Below, one piece after another: positions 1 to 35,423 of a stretch of DNA of 64,000 bases. The stretch's first letter is position 1; each line of letters starts with the position of its first letter. The notes below the pieces were generated by a model that ran no database searches, was not told the DNA's origin, and was given only the letters and a program-made list of their open reading frames with translations. The stretch is from the NCBI RefSeq assembly GCF_013315695.1, contig NZ_CP054353.1. One strand, given 5' to 3'. The position numbers and the translations under genes are program-made. The DNA comes from Escherichia coli (GTDB lineage: Bacteria > Pseudomonadota > Gammaproteobacteria > Enterobacterales > Enterobacteriaceae).

Positions 1-284
1 CGCAGGCACGCGAGCAGTACGGCGACGATCAGGTGAAAGTGTATAAATCCTCTTTCACCGCGATGTATACCGCCGTCACCACTCACCGCCAGCCGTGCCG
101 CATGAAACTGGTATGCGTTGGACCGGAAGAGAAGATTGTCGGAATTCACGGCATTGGTTTTGGTATGGACGAAATGTTGCAGGGCTTCGCGGTGGCACTG
201 AAGATGGGCGCAACCAAAAAAGACTTCGATAATACCGTCGCCATTCACCCGACGGCGGCAGAAGAGTTCGTGACCATGCGTTAA
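1..284 (+). CDS. gor: Glutathione reductase, C-terminal fragment (5' end lies outside the window)
   Basis: ORF 33..284 translation ...[47 protein letters not shown] matches the Gor C-terminus; reading frame is open back to position 1; stop TAA at 282-284. Confidence 0.85.
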
Positions 285-290
285 ATGTTA

Positions 291-321
291 AAGGGCTAAG
301 AGTAGTGTGCTCTTAGCCCTT
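291..321. terminator. Perfect 12-bp stem hairpin (aagggctaagag/ctcttagccctt) between convergent gor and dinQ; likely bidirectional terminator
   Basis: Inverted repeat read directly; lies 7 bp after the gor stop and 14 bp after the dinQ stop (minus strand). Confidence 0.55.
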
Positions 322-334
322 AGCTACGTTTCCG

Positions 335-421
335 CTACCAGTTCAGAAGCTGAAGCAGAAAGCGGATCAGTTCCAGCAGCGCAATTAACGCCCCAAGAAC
401 GATGATTGCTTTATCAATCAC
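335..421 (-). CDS. dinQ: DinQ small hydrophobic membrane toxin peptide (type I toxin), GTG start
   Basis: Minus-strand translation from GTG at 421: VIDKAIIVLGALIALLELIRFLLQLLNW*, a single transmembrane helix matching the DinQ peptide as I recall it; position between gor and agrA/agrB as in K-12. Too short to appear in the ORF track. Confidence 0.6.
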   Translation of the reverse strand: MIDKAIIVLGALIALLELIRFLLQLLNW

Positions 422-614
422 CCGTGTTCTCCATACGATGGAGTGAGAATGCATCCGCTTACTCATCCATTGCCTGTCACGGCGCATGCCCTATTGTTAG
501 ATAATGGCATTCTCACTCCGGCCAGAGCATCAGTTAACGGCACCACCCGTACCACTGATCAGGACTTTGAAAGCGTTTATGCGCATTGCCAGAGTGAAAA
601 TGCCTCAGAGCTAA

Positions 615-632
615 CTGGATAATCATACAGTA
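615..632 (-). promoter_or_regulatory. LexA (SOS) box-like site CTGG-N8-ACAG upstream of the dinQ transcript
   Basis: ctggataatcatacagta has CTGg-N8-ACAG spacing with one mismatch to the LexA consensus CTGT-N8-ACAG; dinQ is a known damage-inducible gene. Confidence 0.5.
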
Positions 633-695
633 TATTCAGGTTATAAAACCAGCATGTCCTTGCAATAGTTTCAGTATGGTATTAGCATTGATGCG

Positions 696-779
696 TTAGA
701 TGATGGCATTCTCACTCCAGCCAGAGCCACCAACTCAGGGCTGGAAAGTAAAAAACCGACGCAAAGTCGGTTTTTTTAC
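696..779 (+). ncRNA. agrA: agrA-like small RNA (antisense-type regulator of dinQ), approximate ends
   Basis: Repeat unit carrying the motif gatgatggcattctcactccagccagagc (also present at about 500-530 in the dinQ leader region) and ending in a rho-independent terminator (ccgacgcaaagtcgg + T7 at 756-777); putative -35 ttgcaa at 660-665. Confidence 0.5.
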
Positions 780-928
780 ATCCGGATTCGGACAAGGCTT
801 GGTACGGCAGCGACCCGATGAAAGTATATCAATCCTCTTTCACCACCATGTATAGCAAACTGTCCCTCCGCCAGCTGAAGAAATCGCTAATTCTTGCAAT
901 GTTAGTCACTGGCTAATAGTATTGAACC

Positions 929-1010
929 GTTAGATAAGAGCTCTCTCACTCCAGCCAGAGCCACCAACTCAGGCTGAAGAGTAAAAAACCGACGCAAAGT
1001 CGGTTTTTTT
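929..1010 (+). ncRNA. agrB: agrB-like small RNA (antisense repressor of dinQ), approximate ends
   Basis: Second copy of the repeat unit, 233 bp downstream of the first; ends in the same hairpin + T7 terminator (989-1010); putative -35 ttgcaa / -10 tagtat upstream; lies 153 bp before arsR. Confidence 0.55.
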
Positions 1011-1162
1011 ATGTCCTGATTCAGACCTCCTTTCAAATGAATACCCAACTCAAAATTCACACCTATTACCTTCCTCTGCACATACGAATTCGTTAAACCA
1101 TATATGTTTTTGACTTATCCGCTTCGAAGAGAGACACTAAGTGCAACAATCAGGAGCGCAAT

Positions 1163-1516
1163 ATGTCATTTCTGTTACCCATCCAACTCTTCAAAATTCT
1201 TGCCGATGAAACCCGTTTGGGCATCGTTTTACTGCTCAGCGAGCTGGGAGAGTTATGCGTCTGCGATCTCTGCACTGCCCTCGATCAGTCGCAGCCCAAG
1301 ATCTCCCGCCATCTGGCATTACTGCGTGAAAGTGGGCTATTGCTGGACCGCAAGCAAGGAAAGTGGGTTCATTACCGTTTATCGCCGCATATTCCAGCAT
1401 GGGCGGCGAAAATTATTGAGCAGGCCTGGCGATGCGAACAGGAAAAGGTTCAGGTGATTGTCCGTAACCTCGCCAGACAAAATTGTTCCGCAGACAGTAA
1501 GAATATTTGTAGTTAA
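1163..1516 (+). CDS. arsR: Arsenical resistance operon repressor ArsR (ArsR/SmtB family)
   Basis: 117-aa ORF with winged-HTH and the As(III)-binding motif ELCVCDLC; followed by arsB and arsC. Confidence 0.9.
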   Translation: MSFLLPIQLFKILADETRLGIVLLLSELGELCVCDLCTALDQSQPKISRHLALLRESGLLLDRKQGKWVHYRLSPHIPAWAAKIIEQAWRCEQEKVQVIVRNLARQNCSADSKNICS

Positions 1517-1570
1517 AAAATTTATCTAAACACATATGAATATTCGAATGTGTTTTATCAAGGAGGCATG

Positions 1571-2860
1571 ATGTTACTGGCGGGCGCTATCTTTGTCCTG
1601 ACCATCGTATTGGTTATCTGGCAGCCGAAAGGTTTAGGCATCGGCTGGAGTGCGACACTGGGCGCCGTACTGGCGTTAGTTACTGGCGTGGTCCATCCGG
1701 GCGATATTCCGGTGGTGTGGAATATCGTCTGGAACGCGACGGCGGCGTTTATAGCCGTCATTATCATCAGCTTGCTGCTGGATGAGTCCGGCTTTTTTGA
1801 ATGGGCGGCGCTGCACGTCTCACGCTGGGGCAATGGGCGCGGTCGCTTGCTGTTTACCTGGATTGTCCTGCTCGGTGCTGCCGTTGCAGCTCTGTTTGCC
1901 AATGATGGCGCGGCGCTTATTTTGACACCGATTGTCATCGCCATGCTGCTGGCTTTAGGGTTCAACAAAGGCACTACGCTGGCGTTTGTTATGGCGGCCG
2001 GATTCATTGCCGATACCGCCAGCCTGCCGCTTATTGTCTCTAACCTGGTGAATATCGTTTCGGCAGATTTCTTTAGCCTCGACTTTCGCGAATACGCCTC
2101 GGTGATGGTGCCGGTGGATATCGCTGCAATACTGGCTACCCTGGTGATGTTGCATCTCTATTTCCGCAAAGATATTCCGCAGAACTACGACATGGCGCTG
2201 CTAAAATCTCCCGCAGAAGCGGTTAAAGATCCTGCCACCTTCAAAACTGGCGGGGTTGTTTTACTGCTTCTGCTGGTGGGATTTTTCGTCCTGGAACCGC
2301 TCGGCATTCCGGTAAGCGCCATTGCGGCAGTGGGCGCGCTGATATTATTTGTCGTCGCTAAACGCGGTCATGCGATTAATACGGGTAAGGTGCTGCGCGG
2401 TGCGCCCTGGCAGATTGTCATCTTCTCGCTCGGCATGTATCTGGTGGTTTATGGCCTGCGCAATGCCGGATTAACGGAATATCTTTCTGGCGTACTCAAC
2501 GTGCTGGCGGATAACGGCCTGTGGGCGGCGACGCTCGGCACCGGATTCCTCACCGCCTTCCTCTCTTCTATTATGAACAATATGCCGACGGTACTGGTTG
2601 GCGCGTTGTCCATTGATGGCAGCACGGCATCTGGTGTCATCAAAGAAGCGATGGTTTATGCCAACGTAATTGGCTGCGATTTGGGGCCGAAAATTACACC
2701 GATTGGTAGCCTGGCAACGCTGCTCTGGCTGCACGTACTTTCGCAGAAGAATATGACTATCAGCTGGGGATATTACTTCCGTACAGGGATTATCATGACC
2801 CTGCCGGTGCTGTTTGTGACGCTCGCCGCGCTGGCGCTTCGTCTCTCTTTCACTTTGTAA
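1571..2860 (+). CDS. arsB: Arsenite/antimonite efflux pump ArsB
   Basis: ORF 1550..2860 is a polytopic membrane protein; start moved to ATG 1571 ([10 protein letters not shown]..., 429 aa), 4 nt after RBS aggagg at 1561-1566. Confidence 0.9.
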
Positions 2861-2872
2861 TGAGATACTGAT

Positions 2873-3298
2873 ATGAGCAACATTACTATTTATCACAACC
2901 CGGCCTGCGGCACGTCGCGTAATACGCTGGAGATGATTCGCAACAGCGGTACAGAACCGACCATTATCTATTATCTGGAAACTCCACCCACACGCGATGA
3001 ACTGATCAAGCTCATTGCCGATATGGGGATTTCCGTTCGTGCGCTGTTGCGTAAAAACGTTGAGCCGTATGAGGAACTGGGCCTTGCAGAAGATAAATTT
3101 ACTGACGATCGGTTAATCGACTTTATGCTGCAATATCCCATCCTGATTAACCGCCCGATTGTGGTGACACCGCTGGGAACTCGCCTGTGCCGCCCTTCAG
3201 AAGTGGTGCTGGAAATTCTGCCAGATGCGCAACAACGCGCGTTCACCAAGGAAGATGGCGAGAAAGTGGTTGATGAGGCGGGTAAACGCCTGAAATAG
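2873..3298 (+). CDS. arsC: Arsenate reductase ArsC (glutaredoxin-coupled)
   Basis: 141-aa ORF MSNITIYHNPACGTSRNTLEMI... with the catalytic Cys in the HNPACGTSR motif; last gene of arsRBC. Confidence 0.9.
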   Translation: MSNITIYHNPACGTSRNTLEMIRNSGTEPTIIYYLETPPTRDELIKLIADMGISVRALLRKNVEPYEELGLAEDKFTDDRLIDFMLQYPILINRPIVVTPLGTRLCRPSEVVLEILPDAQQRAFTKEDGEKVVDEAGKRLK

Positions 3299-3299
3299 C

Positions 3300-3321
3300 T
3301 AAAGGGGGATATGCCCCCTTA
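3300..3321. terminator. Hairpin agggggatatgccccctt between convergent arsC and the ArsR-family regulator
   Basis: 7-bp GC-rich stem (aggggg.../...ccccct) immediately after the arsC stop, followed by tatttgtt. Confidence 0.5.
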
Positions 3322-3639
3322 TTTGTTCTTCGTGGCTCCTTCGCCATCTGTTTTGCTGTTTACGCAGCACTCCTCACGTAAAAATTCAATTATCGCTTCC
3401 AGCATTGCGTATTGCGAAACACACATCAGCGTCCGACTCTCACGGTTTTGTTTGACCAACCCTACCGATACCAGTGCTGAAATATGGTGACTGAGTGTAG
3501 AGCCGGGTATCCCAAGCTGCTTTTGCAACTCACCGACCGGCAAACCTTGTTCCCCCGCTTTGACCAGATGCTTAAATATGAACAAACGGGTCGGGTGACC
3601 TAGCTCTTTCAGCGCTTTAGCAACTTCTTCCAACTGCAT
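3319..3639 (-). CDS. ArsR/SmtB-family transcriptional regulator with C-terminal vicinal cysteines (candidate organoarsenical or metal sensor)
   Basis: ORF 3319..3702; preferred start ATG at 3639 (MQLEEVAKALKELGHPTRLFIFKHL..., 106 aa) preceded by SD gagggga; HTH LPVGELQKQLGIPGSTLSHHISALVSVGLV; C-terminal EECC pair; divergent from the ArsP-like permease. Confidence 0.7.
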   Translation of the reverse strand: MQLEEVAKALKELGHPTRLFIFKHLVKAGEQGLPVGELQKQLGIPGSTLSHHISALVSVGLVKQNRESRTLMCVSQYAMLEAIIEFLREECCVNSKTDGEGATKNK

Positions 3640-3663
3640 ATGACTCCCCTCTGTCTGGTTGAT

Positions 3664-3720
3664 ATTTCGATAATACCAGAAATATCTTGATTTGAATTTC
3701 ATTTCGATTATTCTGGAAAT
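3664..3720. promoter_or_regulatory. Two 20-bp dyad-symmetric sites (ATTTC-N10-GAAAT) in the divergent promoter region; candidate operator
   Basis: atttcgataataccagaaat (3664-3683) and atttcgattattctggaaat (3701-3720) are 16/20 identical, each with 5-bp inverted arms; they sit between the regulator start (3639) and the permease start (3746). Confidence 0.4.
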
Positions 3721-3745
3721 ATAGATTTATTCAATGAGGTTACGT

Positions 3746-4747
3746 ATGAGTAGTTGGCTTGCGATGCTGCAAGATGCCGCAGAGATGTTTGTGTTTCTCG
3801 CCGTCGAGCTTTCTTTGCTGTTTATAGTGATTAGTGCCGGTGTCAGCCTGATAAGACAAAAGGTGCCAGACCATAAAATCCAGCAGATGATGGGGGCCAG
3901 AAAAGGGAGAGGCTATCTCCTGGCTGCTCTGTTGGGAGCCGTTACCCCGTTCTGTAGTTGCTCGACAATACCCATGTTACGTGGATTGTTATCAGCGAAA
4001 GCCGGGTTTGGTCCGACCCTCACTTTTTTATTTGTTTCCCCATTACTTAATCCCATTATCGTCGGGTTAATGTGGGTGACCTTTGGCTGGAAAGTTACCT
4101 TGTTGTACGAGATTATCGCCGCCGGCGTCTCCGTACTTGCCAGTATTATCCTGGATTCCCTGGGATTTGAACGTCATATCATTGCCAGTAAAAGCTCATC
4201 AGCAAATTGTTGTGCTCCAGCCAAAACTTCGCCGGGGACGACATATACGCCAATAAAAGTGAGTTGCTGTAGTCCAGCGGCTAAAGCCATTGAGAAACCT
4301 GTAGTAAACTGTTGCAGTACCAAAGCTGTGGTAAGTATTAATCCCATAAAACTAGCCACCAAAGATGCGTTGCAACAGTTTAAAGATGTACTGCCATATC
4401 TTTTGTTAGGGGTATTAATAGGCTCTTTTATTTATGGCTTTATTCCCTCAGAGTGGATTGCCGCTCATGCAGGGGCAGATAATCCCTTCGCCATCCCATT
4501 GAGCGCCGTTGTTGGTATTCCGCTATATATCCGGGCAGAGGCAGTTATCCCTCTGGCATCTGTTTTGATGACAAAAGGAATGGGTCTGGGAGCATTAATG
4601 GCATTAATCATCGGCAGTGCCGGCGCAAGCCTGACGGAAGTGATATTACTTAAATCAATGTTCAGAATACCGATGATAGTTGCATTCCTGACGGTTATCT
4701 TAGGTATGGCTATCTTGATGGGCTATTTGACTCAAATGCTATTTTAA
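3746..4747 (+). CDS. arsP: ArsP-like permease (putative organoarsenical efflux permease) with a Cys-rich cytoplasmic loop
   Basis: Polytopic membrane ORF (3734..4747; start preferred at ATG 3746 after SD tgagg). Contains TPFCSCSTIP (nt 3944-3973), which matches the TPFcSCSxxP motif I recall for ArsP methylarsenite permeases; also has three CC pairs (NCCAP, SCCSP, NCCST). Confidence 0.6.
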   Translation: MSSWLAMLQDAAEMFVFLAVELSLLFIVISAGVSLIRQKVPDHKIQQMMGARKGRGYLLAALLGAVTPFCSCSTIPMLRGLLSAKAGFGPTLTFLFVSPLLNPIIVGLMWVTFGWKVTLLYEIIAAGVSVLASIILDSLGFERHIIASKSSSANCCAPAKTSPGTTYTPIKVSCCSPAAKAIEKPVVNCCSTKAVVSINPIKLATKDALQQFKDVLPYLLLGVLIGSFIYGFIPSEWIAAHAGADNPFAIPLSAVVGIPLYIRAEAVIPLASVLMTKGMGLGALMALIIGSAGASLTEVILLKSMFRIPMIVAFLTVILGMAILMGYLTQMLF

Positions 4748-5113
4748 ATAGATGCCAGCAGTAAACTATAAGGAGTATTGTGAGTGCCTTATCCTTCTGA
4801 GTAGAAAATCATAGATAGGATAATCCTTAAAAATAACAAATAACTTAACTAATGCTTTGAGAATGATGACGGATCCGTCAGTAAGTCATCAATCGACAAT
4901 CACCACGCAATCATGCTTCTCTGACATTTTATCGGAGAAGCAATGTCTCTTTGTCTCAGTATCATCCCCCTTTTAAAGGGTAGATTTCAGTCGCCAATAC
5001 AACACATTTTTAAATACACTTTAACCTGGTTCATTATTACACATCTAAAACATCACAAAAATATCACTTCACACACTATCGGAGAACATCATAACTTCGG
5101 TAATGACTCCAAC

Positions 5114-5617
5114 TTATTGATAGTGTTTTATGTTCAGATAATGCCCGATGACTTTGTCATGCAGCTCCACCGATTTTGAGAACGACAGCGACTTCCGTCC
5201 CAGCCGTGCCAGGTGCTGCCTCAGATTCAGGTTATGCCGCTCAATTCGCTGCGTATATCGCTTGCTGATTACGTGCAGCTTTCCCTTCAGGCGGGATTCA
5301 TACAGCGGCCAGCCATCCGTCATCCATATCACCACGTCAAAGGGTGACAGCAGGCTCATAAGACGCCCCAGCGTCGCCATAGTGCGTTCACCGAATACGT
5401 GCGCAACAACCGTCTTCCGGAGCCTGTCATACGCGTAAAACAGCCAGCGCTGGCGCGATTTAGCCCCGACATAGCCCCACTGTTCGTCCATTTCCGCGCA
5501 GACGATGACGTCACTGCCCGGCTGTATGCGCGAGGTTACCGACTGCGGCCTGAGTTTTTTAAGTGACGTAAAATCGTGTTGAGGCCAACGCCCATAATGC
5601 GGGCTGTTGCCCGGCAT
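5114..5617 (-). CDS. insB: IS1 InsB (expressed as InsAB' transposase by -1 frameshift)
   Basis: 167-aa [28 protein letters not shown]... overlapping the insA 3' end in the -1 frame. Confidence 0.9.
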
Positions 5618-5811
5618 CCAACGCCATTCATGGCCATATCAATGATTTTCTGGTGCGTACCGGGTTGAGAAGCGGTGTAAGTGAACTGCAGTTGCCATGT
5701 TTTACGGCAGTGAGAGCAGAGATAGCGCTGATGTCCGGCGGTGCTTTTGCCGTTACGCACCACCCCGTCAGTAGCTGAACAGGAGGGACAGCTGATAGAA
5801 ACAGAAGCCAC
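5536..5811 (-). CDS. insA: IS1 InsA (transposition inhibitor / N-terminal part of InsAB' transposase)
   Basis: 91-aa [40 protein letters not shown]... with zinc-finger Cys motifs; the A6C frameshift motif ttaaaaaactc is present at its 3' end. Confidence 0.95.
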
Positions 5812-6142
5812 TGGAGCACCTCAAAAACACCATCATACACTAAATCAGTAAGTTGGCAGCATCACCCATACAACGACATAATAAAATATCAGCAAGAATT
5901 CCAAAAAGAATGTTACAAGCAAGTTAAAGATTTTACAACACCCTCTCGATACAATAGAATTAAAAAATGGGCACAAATGTCTGAATATCAATTCGAAATA
6001 TTTCAACACGATACGTTTCATCCTAAAAAAATGTCATACGCACCTTATTTAAAGAGATCGCTACCTGATGAAAAAACTATAAATTATGGGGTAGAAATAG
6101 AAACACCAATTGGCAAAAGAATTCGCTGGTAATGACTCCAAC

Positions 6143-6646
6143 TTATTGATAGTGTTTTATGTTCAGATAATGCCCGATGACTTTGTCATGCAGCTCCACC
6201 GATTTTGAGAACGACAGCGACTTCCGTCCCAGCCGTGCCAGGTGCTGCCTCAGATTCAGGTTATGCCGCTCAATTCGCTGCGTATATCGCTTGCTGATTA
6301 CGTGCAGCTTTCCCTTCAGGCGGGATTCATACAGCGGCCAGCCATCCGTCATCCATATCACCACGTCAAAGGGTGACAGCAGGCTCATAAGACGCCCCAG
6401 CGTCGCCATAGTGCGTTCACCGAATACGTGCGCAACAACCGTCTTCCGGAGCCTGTCATACGCGTAAAACAGCCAGCGCTGGCGCGATTTAGCCCCGACA
6501 TAGCCCCACTGTTCGTCCATTTCCGCGCAGACGATGACGTCACTGCCCGGCTGTATGCGCGAGGTTACCGACTGCGGCCTGAGTTTTTTAAGTGACGTAA
6601 AATCGTGTTGAGGCCAACGCCCATAATGCGGGCTGTTGCCCGGCAT
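6143..6646 (-). CDS. insB: IS1 InsB (InsAB' by frameshift)
   Basis: Identical 167-aa InsB ORF. Confidence 0.9.
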
Positions 6647-6840
6647 CCAACGCCATTCATGGCCATATCAATGATTTTCTGGTGCGTACCGGGTTGAGAA
6701 GCGGTGTAAGTGAACTGCAGTTGCCATGTTTTACGGCAGTGAGAGCAGAGATAGCGCTGATGTCCGGCGGTGCTTTTGCCGTTACGCACCACCCCGTCAG
6801 TAGCTGAACAGGAGGGACAGCTGATAGAAACAGAAGCCAC
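6565..6840 (-). CDS. insA: IS1 InsA
   Basis: Identical 91-aa InsA ORF. Confidence 0.95.
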
Positions 6841-7181
6841 TGGAGCACCTCAAAAACACCATCATACACTAAATCAGTAAGTTGGCAGCATCACCGAATT
6901 CGCTTATCAAATCATTACCAGAATATAATCCCATAATATTGAACATTAGCGCTTTATAATCATTGAATAAAAATAGATTTTATGCACCTTTAAAAAAAGG
7001 CTATTTTATGGGGCGATGGATACTCATGTCACGCCCCAAAATTAACAGAATTAAACTAAACAGAAGGGATATAAACATCAGACAGGTTTACGTTACTATC
7101 AGGCATATCGCCTCAGAATCAGATGAAAACTATAAAGAAATATCTATTATGGTTTTAATATTTGTTGATAAGGATAGTAAC

Positions 7182-7748
7182 ATGAACATGACAAAAGGTG
7201 CACTCATCCTCAGCCTTTCATTTTTGCTTGCCGCATGTAGTTCAATTCCGCAAAATATCAAAGGCAATAACCAACCTGATATTCAAAAAAGTTTTGTTGC
7301 TGTTCATAACCAGCCGGGGTTATATGTTGGTCAACAAGCGCGCTTTGGTGGGAAGGTTATCAACGTTATCAATGGCAAAACGGATACGTTGTTAGAAATC
7401 GCTGTATTACCGTTGGATAGCTATGCGAAGCCTGATATTGAAGCCAACTATCAGGGCCGACTGCTCGCCAGACAAAGCGGCTTCCTTGATCCAGTGAACT
7501 ATCGTAATCACTTTGTTACCATCCTCGGTACCATTCAGGGTGAACAACCTGGCTTTATCAATAAAGTCCCGTATAACTTCCTCGAAGTGAATATGCAGGG
7601 CATCCAGGTGTGGCATTTGAGAGAAGTGGTTAATACCACCTATAACCTGTGGGATTACGGCTATGGTGCATTCTGGCCGGAACCGGGCTGGGGTGCGCCT
7701 TACTACACCAACGCGGTGAGTCAGGTAACACCTGAGCTGGTCAAATAA
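7182..7748 (+). CDS. slp: Outer-membrane starvation lipoprotein Slp
   Basis: ORF 6963..7748; start set to MNMTKGALILSLSFLLAACSS (lipobox LAAC) giving 188 aa; matches Slp. Confidence 0.85.
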   Translation: MNMTKGALILSLSFLLAACSSIPQNIKGNNQPDIQKSFVAVHNQPGLYVGQQARFGGKVINVINGKTDTLLEIAVLPLDSYAKPDIEANYQGRLLARQSGFLDPVNYRNHFVTILGTIQGEQPGFINKVPYNFLEVNMQGIQVWHLREVVNTTYNLWDYGYGAFWPEPGWGAPYYTNAVSQVTPELVK

Positions 7749-7900
7749 CACCACCGAAAGATGCAGATGCTTTCTCAGCATCTGCATCATGCATTACATC
7801 AAATTAATACACAGCCAGCTAATTATTATTATAAGCCCTGTCCTGTTAATTACCTTTGGCAAACTGATTATAAAGTTAATGTCCGCACCAGGAGTCGGTT

Positions 7901-8431
7901 ATGTTTCTTATAATTACCAGGGATACGATGTTCTTCACTGCGATGAAAAACATTCTGAGTAAAGGTAATGTCGTTCATATACAGAACGAAGAAGAGATCG
8001 ACGTAATGTTGCATCAGCATGCCTTCGTCATTATTGATACATTAATGAATAATGTATTTCATTCTAATTTGCTCACTCAAATTGAACGATTAAAACCTGT
8101 CCATGTGATTATTTTCTCCCCCTTTAATATTAAACGCTGCCTGGGGAAAGTACCGGTGACCTTTGTTCCGCGAACTATCACCATCATCGACTTTGTCGCA
8201 CTCATCAATGGCAGTTACTGCTCTGTGCCTGAAGCGGATGTGTCCCTTTCGCGCAAGCAGCATCAGGTTCTGAGCTGCATTGCGAATCAAATGACAACGG
8301 AAGATATTCTGGAGAAACTGAAAATATCGCTAAAAACGTTCTACTGCCATAAACACAATATCATGATGATCCTCAATCTTAAGCGGATCAATGAGTTGGT
8401 ACGCCATCAGCATATTGATTATCTGGTGTGA
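7901..8431 (+). CDS. dctR: LuxR-family regulator DctR (YhiF)
   Basis: 176-aa ORF with C-terminal LuxR-type HTH; position after slp as in the K-12 acid fitness island. Confidence 0.85.
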   Translation: MFLIITRDTMFFTAMKNILSKGNVVHIQNEEEIDVMLHQHAFVIIDTLMNNVFHSNLLTQIERLKPVHVIIFSPFNIKRCLGKVPVTFVPRTITIIDFVALINGSYCSVPEADVSLSRKQHQVLSCIANQMTTEDILEKLKISLKTFYCHKHNIMMILNLKRINELVRHQHIDYLV

Positions 8432-8491
8432 TCGATTGATTAATATAAAGAGGCCCAGCAATAAATAGCCAGACCTCCCGTTAATTATACG

Positions 8492-9520
8492 TTATGCAGT
8501 AACGCCTTCCGGTATCAGCGAAGCAATTTGCTTACGCCATTGCGCTTGCTCCTGTTCGCCTTCTGTACGTTGACCATAAAGTTGCGCTATCTGCGTACCA
8601 TCATGGGCAAACAATTCCAGACTGGTCACATAACCGTCACTAGCAGGTTTACGGGTTACCCAGGTTTCAGCAATGCTCTCTTCTAATAGATGAAGAGTAA
8701 ACGTCGGGTTAAAAATATTCAGCCAACCTTTCATTGGCACCACTTTTTCTACCACGCCAGTGAAAATCTGTACGCAGCCACGGTTGCCAACAAACACCAT
8801 GATTTCATTGCCATCCTGCTGTGCAGATTCAAGAATTTGCGCCAACGCACTGTTGGATACTTTGCAGGCCAAATCGTCTGCCACCAGATTGAACGCCTGT
8901 TGGCGCGTCAGGTTGTGGCGCTTGAGCAACGTAAAAAACTGATGAACGTCGGTCATCGCCCGCCACTCTTGCTCGACCACACTGGCATCGGCTCGCGTTT
9001 GAACAACTGGCGCATCAACGGCTTTTAACTCAAGCGGCGTATTCTCATCGGTGATAAACCGTGCCAGAAGCTCACTCCATGCCGCCATATCGGTATTGTC
9101 GGTGGCATAAACTTTTAGTAATGCATCGCCCTGATGATCAAAGAACTGAATACTCTGGCGTTCGCCACGAGCCGTGTTTTCTTTGATGTGGAAAACACTG
9201 GCCCATTGATTGAGAAACAGACGTAAATCCAGCGCGCGCGGATTGAGGATCAATCCGGCATGTCCGTTCAAATGCTGGTTTGTGAACGCACCAACTTGCT
9301 CATGGACTGCATATTCATTACGACAAATACATTTGGTTTCGCCAACACTTTCGAGCGCCGCCAGAATTTCACGAATATCGCCGCGCATCCGCCACGCGTC
9401 GTGCGTGACGCGCGCAAATGCCAGTTCTGCTTCGCTGATATTCATTAAACCTGCGATGTCACGCGCGTACTTTCCGGGATTTTGTTCTTTTAACTCAAGC
9501 CAGCGTGTGTAGTGGTTCAT
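8492..9520 (-). CDS. chuS: Heme-degrading / heme oxygenase protein ChuS (ShuS/HemS family)
   Basis: 342-aa ORF MNHYTRWLELKEQNPGKYARDIAGL...; immediately downstream of chuA on the same strand, as in chu/shu loci. Confidence 0.85.
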   Translation of the reverse strand: MNHYTRWLELKEQNPGKYARDIAGLMNISEAELAFARVTHDAWRMRGDIREILAALESVGETKCICRNEYAVHEQVGAFTNQHLNGHAGLILNPRALDLRLFLNQWASVFHIKENTARGERQSIQFFDHQGDALLKVYATDNTDMAAWSELLARFITDENTPLELKAVDAPVVQTRADASVVEQEWRAMTDVHQFFTLLKRHNLTRQQAFNLVADDLACKVSNSALAQILESAQQDGNEIMVFVGNRGCVQIFTGVVEKVVPMKGWLNIFNPTFTLHLLEESIAETWVTRKPASDGYVTSLELFAHDGTQIAQLYGQRTEGEQEQAQWRKQIASLIPEGVTA

Positions 9521-9568
9521 TGTCTCTCTTCCTTCCAGATAAATGCCCCGAAATATCGGGGCAGATGA

Positions 9569-11551
9569 TTACCATTGATAACTCACGAAAATTTTTCCGT
9601 TACGACCATCCTGTGGGATGCCTTGCGGCGACCAGTACTCTTTATCGAAGGCGTTGCCCAATACCAGAGTAGTGGTCATGCCTTTGAGCGCCTGTTGTCC
9701 TTGATAACTGACGTAAAAATCATTCACACCATAGCCAGGTTGTTTGCTGTAACTGCTGCTGATATGTGTTGAGCGATCGGCAAACGTACCGACCCAACCA
9801 ACAGAGAAGCCACTGTGAGCGATCGGAATATTCAGGGTACTGGTAACGGTATCCGGGTTAATGCTGGAGATATATTCCCCAGTATCGGTGTCTTTGCCGC
9901 GGGTACGGTTATAGGCCACATCAAGGCTAAACAGATCAGTGGTATATTTCGTCATTACATCCCAGCCCCAGATTTTGGCGTTCGGGACGTTATACGACAT
10001 AGTTGTCGCCGCCGCGAAATCGACGGTCGTGGAGATGTAATCCTTCGCTTTGGTATCAAAGTAGCTGGCTTTAAATTCCAGAGCATCATTGGACAACATC
10101 AGGTCATCAAAACGCAGCCCAAAACCGTACTCCTGAGTTTCGTTAGTTTCCGGACGTAAGTTCGGGTTTGGCACCCAATAGTTGGTATAGAAGCGACCAA
10201 TCGAGAAGTGCTTAGAATCGTTATACATTTCGCCCATCGTCGGGGCGCGGAATGCCTGGGCATATGAGCCAAATAACATCAGCCAGTTGGTCGGGTTGAT
10301 AGTCATCCCCGCACGAGATGACCATTTGTCAGCATCAACATCTTTGTAGCCGTCGCTGCTACCGCGATAACTGTCATAGCGGGTTCCGCCAAGCAGGGTA
10401 ATCGGCAGATCGCGTAAGGTGATCTCATCCTGTAGCCAACCAGAGCTAAAATCGATTTTTGCTTGCGGGAAGCCCGTGGTCGCGCCACCCGGATGTTGTT
10501 CCTGACGATAATACTCACCGCCATATGTCAGTAAGTGAGAAGCGAAACTGTCGGCAAATAGAGTGGAACGGTTCTCCAGCCTGGCTCCTTTTGTTATCTG
10601 TTCACGATACTCGCCGGAACTCCCCGTGTTTTGCGCATTAATACGGACTTCCGACCAGTAAATTTTTGCATCTGCATTTAACCAGTCGTTGCCCTGCGGG
10701 GCGAGTTTATAAGAAAGCTGCGCATCGCGTTGAATTGTTGAACGATCAACCATCGGGTTGCTGCTATCAGAAGCCTCAACAGTCTGCGGATTTTTTGGTT
10801 CACGCGCGTCGTTGTTGTAGTAACGCACTAAACCGCTCAGAGACTGGGCTGAATCAATTTGCCAGGTCCCTTTCGCCAGCATGTTATTAATGGACTCGTC
10901 ATTCGGCGCGGTTTCACCATTGCTCTGGCGTAAATCACCCCGATCGCGACTGGACCAGGCCACAATACCATCCAGATTTTCAGTTCGCCCAAACGCGCTC
11001 GCGCCTAATCCCAGGCTATGGTCCCCCGTGCCGCCAGTACCAAAGACACGAAAACCACTACTTTGTCCTTCCTGCAATAAATCTTTTGCATCGACCGTAT
11101 CGTAGGAGATCACCCCACCCAGCGCGCCACTGCCATACAGTAATGCTGAAGGTCCGCGAACAATCTCAACACGCTTGATCAGCGCCGGATCAAGAAAAGT
11201 ACCATTCAGGTGTCCGGTATCCGTTCCCTGGCGAACACCATCGACAAGAACCAGCACGCCGCGATGATCATAGCCACGCATATTTACATCCTGACCGTTG
11301 GTTCGTCCGGTACCATCAAGAGTAATTCCAGGAACATGACGCAGCAAATCAGTGGCTGAAGTAGCAGTTTGATTTTCAGGAGCGGAAGTGTCGATAACGC
11401 TGACCATCATAGGCGCTTCGAAGGAACTACGTGCATTCCCCGTTGCCGTAACGGTCATGGTTTCAGTAGCAAAAGCAAATGTTGGCAAGGTGGCAGAAAC
11501 AGCCAAAGCCAACAAACTCAAACGCAACGAGGTAAATTGCGGACGTGACAT
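9569..11551 (-). CDS. chuA: TonB-dependent outer-membrane heme/hemoglobin receptor ChuA (ShuA)
   Basis: 660-aa ORF with signal peptide, N-terminal plug region and C-terminal terminal-F beta-barrel residue (…VSYQW); Fur box upstream. Confidence 0.9.
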   Translation of the reverse strand: MSRPQFTSLRLSLLALAVSATLPTFAFATETMTVTATGNARSSFEAPMMVSVIDTSAPENQTATSATDLLRHVPGITLDGTGRTNGQDVNMRGYDHRGVLVLVDGVRQGTDTGHLNGTFLDPALIKRVEIVRGPSALLYGSGALGGVISYDTVDAKDLLQEGQSSGFRVFGTGGTGDHSLGLGASAFGRTENLDGIVAWSSRDRGDLRQSNGETAPNDESINNMLAKGTWQIDSAQSLSGLVRYYNNDAREPKNPQTVEASDSSNPMVDRSTIQRDAQLSYKLAPQGNDWLNADAKIYWSEVRINAQNTGSSGEYREQITKGARLENRSTLFADSFASHLLTYGGEYYRQEQHPGGATTGFPQAKIDFSSGWLQDEITLRDLPITLLGGTRYDSYRGSSDGYKDVDADKWSSRAGMTINPTNWLMLFGSYAQAFRAPTMGEMYNDSKHFSIGRFYTNYWVPNPNLRPETNETQEYGFGLRFDDLMLSNDALEFKASYFDTKAKDYISTTVDFAAATTMSYNVPNAKIWGWDVMTKYTTDLFSLDVAYNRTRGKDTDTGEYISSINPDTVTSTLNIPIAHSGFSVGWVGTFADRSTHISSSYSKQPGYGVNDFYVSYQGQQALKGMTTTLVLGNAFDKEYWSPQGIPQDGRNGKIFVSYQW

Positions 11552-34127: not shown

Positions 34128-34645
34128 AACTGAATCTCCACCTGAATACGTTAAAAAGACTTAAGTAGTGGAAGGGTATTACCCGCGAGAAAAAATAAGA
34201 ATTCGCCATTTGGCGGTGGCCATTCTACAGAGATGACGCGTAGAAAATAGTTACCGATATAAATAGTTACAGCTAAACGCCTGAAATTACATGTCGAGTG
34301 CACTATTTAAAACAATTTTGAGGATTTCCTTATATTGATGGTTAGTACGCATGCAATTAAAAATGAAACTCCGCGACCACAAGCAAAAATAACAAATGGC
34401 AATGAGACAAAAATAAGCACAAATAGCCAACACGTCCTCTGTTCACTTTAAAGGGAATCGCTGAAAAAAACGCTCTGTTTAGGGAAATTCACCTTTCTCA
34501 TAAAGCTATTCCGCCCTTTTCCTGCTGAGAAATCGCCACATTCGTCATGACAACATTGTGAAACCCGGCATTAGATGTTAGAAAAAACAAGGTGATGCTG
34601 CCAACTTACTGATTTAGTGTATGATGGTGTTTTTGAGGTGCTCCA

Positions 34646-34921
34646 GTGGCTTCTGTTTCTATCAGCTGTCCCTCCTGTTCAGCTACTGACGGGGTGGTGC
34701 GTAACGGCAAAAGCACCGCCGGACATCAGCGCTATCTCTGCTCTCACTGCCGTAAAACATGGCAACTGCAGTTCACTTACACCGCTTCTCAACCCGGTAC
34801 GCACCAGAAAATCATTGATATGGCCATGAATGGCGTTGGATGCCGGGCAACAGCCCGCATTATGGGCGTTGGCCTCAACACGATTTTACGTCACTTAAAA
34901 AACTCAGGCCGCAGTCGGTAA
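34646..34921 (+). CDS. insA: IS1 InsA
   Basis: Identical 91-aa InsA ORF. Confidence 0.95.
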
Positions 34922-35343
34922 CCTCGCGCATACAGCCGGGCAGTGACGTCATCGTCTGCGCGGAAATGGACGAACAGTGGGGCTATGTCGGGGCTAAATC
35001 GCGCCAGCGCTGGCTGTTTTACGCGTATGACAGGCTCCGGAAGACGGTTGTTGCGCACGTATTCGGTGAACGCACTATGGCGACGCTGGGGCGTCTTATG
35101 AGCCTGCTGTCACCCTTTGACGTGGTGATATGGATGACGGATGGCTGGCCGCTGTATGAATCCCGCCTGAAGGGAAAGCTGCACGTAATCAGCAAGCGAT
35201 ATACGCAGCGAATTGAGCGGCATAACCTGAATCTGAGGCAGCACCTGGCACGGCTGGGACGGAAGTCGCTGTCGTTCTCAAAATCGGTGGAGCTGCATGA
35301 CAAAGTCATCGGGCATTATCTGAACATAAAACACTATCAATAA
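34840..35343 (+). CDS. insB: IS1 InsB (InsAB' by frameshift)
   Basis: Identical 167-aa InsB ORF. Confidence 0.9.
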
Positions 35344-35423
35344 GTTGGAGTCATTACCAAAAAACAATAAACAATGCGATATGCGCGCTACTGTTTCGCT
35401 GTGAACAACAATCGGTCAAAGAA

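Follow-up and report, generated by a model that had tools for sequence, protein, structure and literature searches.

We propose that in a near-clonal lineage of E. coli the gene yhiS has been reduced to a fragment through three events, namely the insertion of IS1 into an intergenic spacer, a deletion adjacent to this insertion and the separate insertion of a second IS1 copy, and we give this history a probability of about 0.6. The locus lies in the 64-kb stretch of DNA that was analysed here (hereafter the window), where two IS1 copies flank a gene remnant between an ArsP-type permease gene and slp. It is noted that this kind of event is already known, the locus being a case of routine pseudogene formation, that is, of ordinary gene decay. 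Since sister genomes preserve the state before the deletion, the history of the locus can be read directly, and copy 1 provides a clean, datable case of an IS1 insertion that was followed by the loss of its flank.

The two IS1 copies and the gene between them

Copy 1 (5099-5866) and copy 2 (6128-6895) are each 768 bp long, share one orientation (transposase genes on the minus strand), and show no mismatch to one another (768/768 positions equal), a degree of identity at this length that makes an origin by chance impossible. In copy 1, insA is at 5536-5811 and the insB' frame at 5114-5617, with IRR at the left end and IRL at the right end, and in copy 2, insA is at 6565-6840 and the insB' frame at 6143-6646. 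The terminal inverted repeats of both copies are imperfect (GGTAATGACTCCAACTTATTGAT vs GGTGATGCTGCCAACTTACTGAT, 18/23 positions matching), and the IS1 frames match the Pfam families Zn_ribbon_InsA (E 1.3e-21), HTH_Tnp_IS1 (E 4.7e-31) and DDE_Tnp_IS1 (E 2.3e-78). The A6C motif AAAAAAC, which is at IS position 307 and thus in copy 1 at window 5554-5560 on the minus strand, falls inside the insA/insB' overlap and is a candidate −1 frameshift site for insA/insB'. In length, inverted repeats, insA/insB', A6C motif and 9-bp duplication both copies are like the IS1A-type element of E. coli and Shigella, being standard and intact with no notable difference from it. This is also the label given by RefSeq to the identical copy in the complete genomes AF3 and MSB1_4I ('IS1-like element IS1A family transposase').

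The target duplication of the IS1 family, which is 9 bp and sometimes 8 bp long, is present in its 9-bp form around copy 2 in the window and around copy 1 in AF3 and MSB1_4I. For copy 2, GAATTCGCT occurs at 6119-6127 on the left and at 6896-6904 on the right, forming a perfect 9-bp pair. For copy 1, the left flank (5090-5098) is CATAACTTC, the surviving left half of a 9-bp target duplication, and the right flank (5867-5875) is CATACAACG, which is unlike CATAACTTC, so that copy 1 has no duplication in the window. The gap between the two copies is 5867-6127, exactly 261 bp. An earlier note on this DNA had described the region 4748-6936 in these terms, with two same-orientation copies 261 bp apart, a perfect duplication around copy 2 and none around copy 1, and both its description and its coordinates are correct: the permease stop ends directly before 4748, and the yhiS stop ends at 6936.

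In the intact sister strains the space between the permease gene and slp is filled by a 1224-bp gene of 407 codons, which is annotated merely as 'hypothetical protein'. The remnant in the window (5867-6127, plus strand) covers codon 312 to about codon 397 of this gene, with the first full codon at 5869, and reads YNDIIKYQQEFQKECYKQ...GKRIR. The 3' end of the gene is at 6896-6936 (plus strand), where the first 9 nt are the duplicated target and where LSNHYQNIIP is followed by TAA at 6934-6936. When copy 2 and one copy of its duplication are removed, the frame is open from 5869 to this TAA, giving 96 residues, in agreement with the earlier claim of an open frame running from the copy 1 boundary through copy 2 to a stop at 6936. 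The restored MS 21-1 protein has the very same 96 residues at positions 312-407, the remnant DNA has 100% identity to the 3' end of the intact 407-codon AF3 gene, and about 75 of the 96 residues, as counted by eye, agree with K-12 yhiS fragment 2 (~78% protein identity). In gene order (arsB, arsC, arsR-like, permease, remnant, slp, dctR) the remnant is directly upstream of slp and downstream of the ars cluster. Based on this position and on the sequence match to the intact gene and to K-12 fragment 2, the remnant is the 3' quarter of yhiS, which the earlier note had named as the possible identity of the disrupted gene. The comparison of syntenic intervals proposed in that note was run, and a single intact 407-codon gene between the permease gene and slp in the sister strains matches both 5867-6127 and the tail.

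It is noted that in K-12 the gene at the same place, yhiS (b3504), is also a pseudogene, being split by IS5 (IS5T/insH11). The two cases are alike in that the same gene just upstream of slp has been inactivated by an insertion sequence. By contrast, the element in K-12 is IS5 at another site rather than IS1, both halves of the gene have been kept in K-12 whereas 76% of the gene has been lost in the window, and K-12 is without the pair of ArsR-like regulator and permease that is present between arsC and yhiS in the window. In the window yhiS is dead, having no promoter, no start codon and only 96/407 codons, which are moreover split by an IS. The gene is a dispensable E. coli gene of unknown function. 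YhiS gave no match to Pfam or NCBIfam families, and the sole other hit is a weak likeness of residues 207-254 of the intact protein (L001 5079-6302) to the pentapeptide-repeat protein Rfr (PDB 2f3l, E 0.0037). For annotation this means that 'yhiS pseudogene fragment' is the fitting label for the 261-bp segment together with the tail at 6896-6936, and that neither the ORF 4943-5179 nor the ORF 5977-6132 should be called a gene.

The DNA to the left of copy 1 (4748-5098) is the permease-yhiS intergenic spacer, which lies outside yhiS and is intact up to the insertion point of copy 1, being identical to AF3 and collinear with MS 21-1 to L002 position 4846. The earlier note had included 4750-5098 in its proposed check for matches to the disrupted gene and had suggested that the ORF 4943-5179 (78 codons, plus strand) could be its orphaned 5' end. 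This reading, which would draw on the ORF being the sole plus-strand ORF just left of copy 1, has practically no chance of being true, because in the intact strains this DNA is intergenic, the equivalent ORF in strains without an IS here has 54 codons (ending in MS 21-1 with ...EHHNFLK and a stop), its frame is unlike that of yhiS with many stops between the two, and it is 380 bp upstream of the yhiS start. The true start, which in the intact strains is 228 bp past the left deletion border (5098), has itself been deleted in the window. The ORF is spurious and is long in the window because it reads into IS1, where its last 81 nt lie.

Sister genomes and the missing 1167 bp

The comparison covered 5,426 complete RefSeq E. 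coli genomes, and the whole 2436-bp two-copy structure was found in one piece in 0/5,426 of them. The four IS1 junctions were also searched one by one among complete E. coli genomes. The sole junction that is shared is the left junction of copy 1, which is present in AF3 and MSB1_4I. For the right junction of copy 1 and the left junction of copy 2 there is no true match among the complete E. coli genomes, the only near match to the former, in CUWW10, being offset by 3 bp. These genomes contain no intermediate that would fix the order of events or show a third IS1.

AF3 and MSB1_4I are the nearest complete genomes, having 0 and 1 mismatch to the window over ~10 kb here. For AF3 there is no mismatch over 1-5870, 5867-6127 and 6896-10788, and there are 4 mismatches over 31878-64000, a stretch that spans the other two IS1 copies of the window. 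Moreover, window 7200-32000 (24.8 kb) has 100% identity to AF3, MSB1_4I, AF14, AF10 and MS 21-1.

At the left junction of copy 1, both AF3 and MSB1_4I carry an IS1 that is identical at 768/768 positions, has the same orientation and lies between two copies of CATAACTTC; the 1224-bp yhiS downstream of it is intact. The insertion is thus ancestral to the deletion, and since these two genomes carry the same IS1 with both duplications and an intact yhiS, copy 1 began as an insertion into the intergenic spacer, at a point 236 bp upstream of where yhiS starts. At the locus, the sole differences between the window and AF3 are the loss of L009 (AF3) 6849-8015, i.e. exactly 1167 bp, and the presence of copy 2. 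The deletion junction is at 5866-5870, with window 5866 corresponding to L009 6848 and window 5867 to L009 8016. The missing 1167 bp consist of the right duplication copy, 227 bp of spacer, and the yhiS start with codons 1-310 plus 1 nt, and their counterpart in MS 21-1 is L002 4847-6004. This bears out the earlier claim that the 5' part of the gene was lost by deletion at the edge of copy 1, the two genomes with the same left junction giving the DNA that is missing.

The product has the marks of an adjacent deletion: the IS and its left junction have been kept, and the loss extends from the IRL terminus, with an ambiguity of 4 bp. The ambiguity arises from CATA at 5867-5870, which is a 4-bp microhomology with the start of the lost right duplication copy, and because CATA is present at both borders of the deletion the alignment with AF3 extends 4 nt beyond the terminus of the IS1. 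From the base composition, we estimate that a 4-bp match of this kind would arise by chance in ~0.6% of cases.

The site of copy 2 is empty in AF3, MSB1_4I, AF10 and AF14. Since its duplication is intact, copy 2 is a separate simple insertion, which lies 11 codons ahead of the stop of yhiS. The deletion and copy 2 are private to the window strain within an almost SNP-free clone, and thus they could serve as strain-typing markers.

The proposed history and its alternatives

In the proposed history, IS1 would have entered the spacer between the ArsP-type permease gene and yhiS, duplicating CATAACTTC and giving the state that survives in AF3 and MSB1_4I. The transposase of copy 1 would have joined the insA-proximal IRL end to the nearby target CATACAACG in yhiS by intramolecular replicative transposition, with the 1167 bp being lost as a circle, with the IS1 and its left junction staying put and with the duplication being destroyed. 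A further copy of the same IS1 variant would have entered yhiS in the same orientation, duplicating GAATTCGCT and becoming copy 2. Either order of the last two steps would fit. The earlier note had the gene being hit again by copy 2 after the deletion; a separate simple insertion with an intact duplication stands, which may have come before or after the deletion.

IS1-mediated adjacent deletions reportedly had their classical description, in the gal region, from Reif and Saedler in 1975, and Turlan and Chandler are said to have described them in 1995 as replicative deletions. The window is like these cases in that the IS is retained, one junction is kept, the loss runs from the IS terminus and the duplication is gone, while it differs in that the product alone is seen, the dependence on transposase being inferred, and in that the junction has a 4-bp microhomology. 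Within the chromosome IS1 moves by replicative transposition, and the duplications that it leaves are 9 bp long (PMC12428005). PMC11708052, where the general class of IS-mediated adjacent deletions is described, documents adjacent deletion and recombination between IS copies as the usual ways in which a duplication is lost. Concerning the IS1-mediated deletion that the earlier note had claimed, the loss is indeed flush with the IS1 terminus, and the action of transposase rather than recombination is the part of the history that we infer. A one-step adjacent deletion is favoured because it needs the fewest events, because the loss starts at the IS terminus and because no complete E. coli genome has an IS1 at the predicted second site.

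The same end product would be expected if a third IS1, in direct orientation, had been inserted at CATACAACG in yhiS and if RecA-dependent recombination between it and copy 1 had then removed one IS1 together with the 1167 bp, leaving a hybrid copy. We consider this route rather unlikely, although it has real weight, since the sequence that it leaves would be the same as that left by the one-step deletion, and, with the four IS1 copies of the window being identical, the hybrid would bear no trace of its origin. Moreover, the stretch is often struck by IS1, as in CUWW10, where two direct copies lie in yhiS and where an IS1 at a distance of only 3 bp has the duplication ACAACGACA, and inter-IS recombination is a frequent cause of missing duplications (PMC11708052). 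Nevertheless, it needs an extra event in a strain that has no base difference from AF3 over >10 kb here, and the intermediate junction that it predicts is in no complete genome. The 4-bp CATA match is not predicted by the transposition model and possibly hints at a role of microhomology. In the corresponding alternative the deletion would have arisen by slippage or break repair between the CATA tetranucleotides that lie 1167 bp apart (at the start of the right duplication in AF3 and at window 5867-5870), either unrelated to IS1 or after a break made by transposase. This we regard as improbable, because four bases are very short and such a match is expected fairly often in DNA of 33% G+C, and because, if the IS was not involved, a start within 4 bp of the IS1 terminus would be a coincidence. 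It might also be thought that the assembly joined contigs wrongly at the IS1 repeats and so created the two-copy arrangement, as IS copies are classic points of misassembly and the whole structure is in no complete RefSeq E. coli genome. However, the four junctions are coherent, one having a perfect 9-bp duplication and one being common to two independent complete genomes, the unique 261-bp segment is in the right order and orientation, and a misjoin would not make a clean duplication, so that an artefact of this kind is very improbable.

A single event that would have made both the deletion and copy 2 was rejected by reasoning. Replicative transposition within one molecule yields a deletion or else an inversion with inverted copies, and between sister chromosomes the outcome is a deletion or a duplication of the entire segment. 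None of the transposition outcomes that were considered gives the observed arrangement. The possibility that copy 2 is the MS 21-1 insertion flipped in place was also rejected, because the two elements differ at 3 positions and because AF3, which is closer, has an empty site. To our knowledge, no reaction of IS1 that flips the element in place has been described.

Note also that 5099-6895 (1797 bp), where two identical direct IS1 copies enclose a short unique segment, is like a composite transposon of the Tn9 type. By contrast with such a transposon, the outer flanks do not match (CATAACTTC vs GAATTCGCT) and the passenger is a 261-bp fragment without a selectable function. A composite transposon has one target duplication around the whole unit, which is not found here, and the copies arrived separately; from the mismatch of the outer flanks, the pair was built in place rather than moved as a unit. 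The direct pair is likely to recombine, which would remove the last 261 bp.

IS1 in the permease-slp interval and elsewhere in the window

The permease-slp interval has a G+C content of 33%, compared with 50% for the window. In the window and the five near-identical complete genomes taken together, IS1 is present at three different sites within 1.8 kb, which are marked by the duplications GTGAGTGCC (AF10 and AF14), CATAACTTC (AF3, MSB1_4I and the window) and GAATTCGCT (MS 21-1 and the window). The IS1 of MS 21-1 (L002 6266-7033) is at the point corresponding to window 6127/6128 and has the same 9-bp target GAATTCGCT, but it is in the opposite orientation and differs from copy 2 at 3 bases. Given the opposite orientation and the 3 differences, and given that the site is free of IS1 in AF3, a closer relative of the window than MS 21-1, the target GAATTCGCT has been used twice independently.

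Among more distant strains, IS1 was found in yhiS, in slp and, in one case, between slp and dctR, and another IS1-associated deletion reaches yhiS from the yhiN side, these cases having been retrieved with an IS1-containing query and so being no measure of frequency. In the unrelated CUWW10 (L010 1154-3080) the two direct IS1 copies in yhiS each have their own duplication. In the unrelated B771 an IS1 without a duplication (L005 3001-3768) joins yhiN-side DNA to the middle of yhiS, and the ars region is missing there.

Four target sites were tested for likeness to the IS1 ends, and only the site termed C matches, at 10/14 positions. This match includes TCATTACC at 6912-6919, 7 nt beyond the copy 2 target, which is the reverse complement of the first 8 nt of IRR; its score is equalled by 4.6% of random positions in the interval, which is marginal and, after four sites tested, unconvincing. 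That the interval is a true target hot spot of IS1, beyond mere AT-richness, is a tentative idea, to which we lean somewhat less than to its opposite. Its basis may be seen in the three sites within 1.8 kb, the reuse of GAATTCGCT by two IS1 variants and the deletion endpoint 3 bp from the CUWW10 target. If the idea is true, the strains would form a natural series from which the target choice of IS1 could be learned, with respect to DNA shape, H-NS binding and the 8-nt match to the IS1 tip.

Several further features of the window are noted. Between arsC and yhiS, an ArsR/SmtB-family regulator gene (3319-3639, minus strand) and the ArsP_1-type permease gene (3746-4747, plus strand) are divergent, the permease matching Pfam ArsP_1 with E 5.5e-52 and having weak similarity to Cu/Zn efflux transporters. 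The dinQ-arsR spacer has two AgrB-type antisense small-RNA genes (696-779 and 930-1012; Rfam RF02891, 108 and 90 bits), with a partial third copy of the repeat upstream at 496-528. Where the window has tandem repeats at ~63000-64000, the AF3 annotation has five successive Ldr-family type I toxin genes.

Finally, we note that the window has four IS1 copies in total, all identical. The third (34591-35358, minus strand) has a perfect 9-bp duplication AAAAAACAA and is also present in AF3, where it is annotated between yhjB and rcdB. The fourth (59050-59817, plus strand) has the flanks CTGTTCGCG and TTATTTTCA and is without a target duplication, marking a second IS1-associated deletion in the window. 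In AF3 this fourth IS1 has a truncated bcsR on one side and a truncated bcsE on the other, and the annotation gives bcsA an internal stop; cellulose synthesis has probably been lost in the clade.
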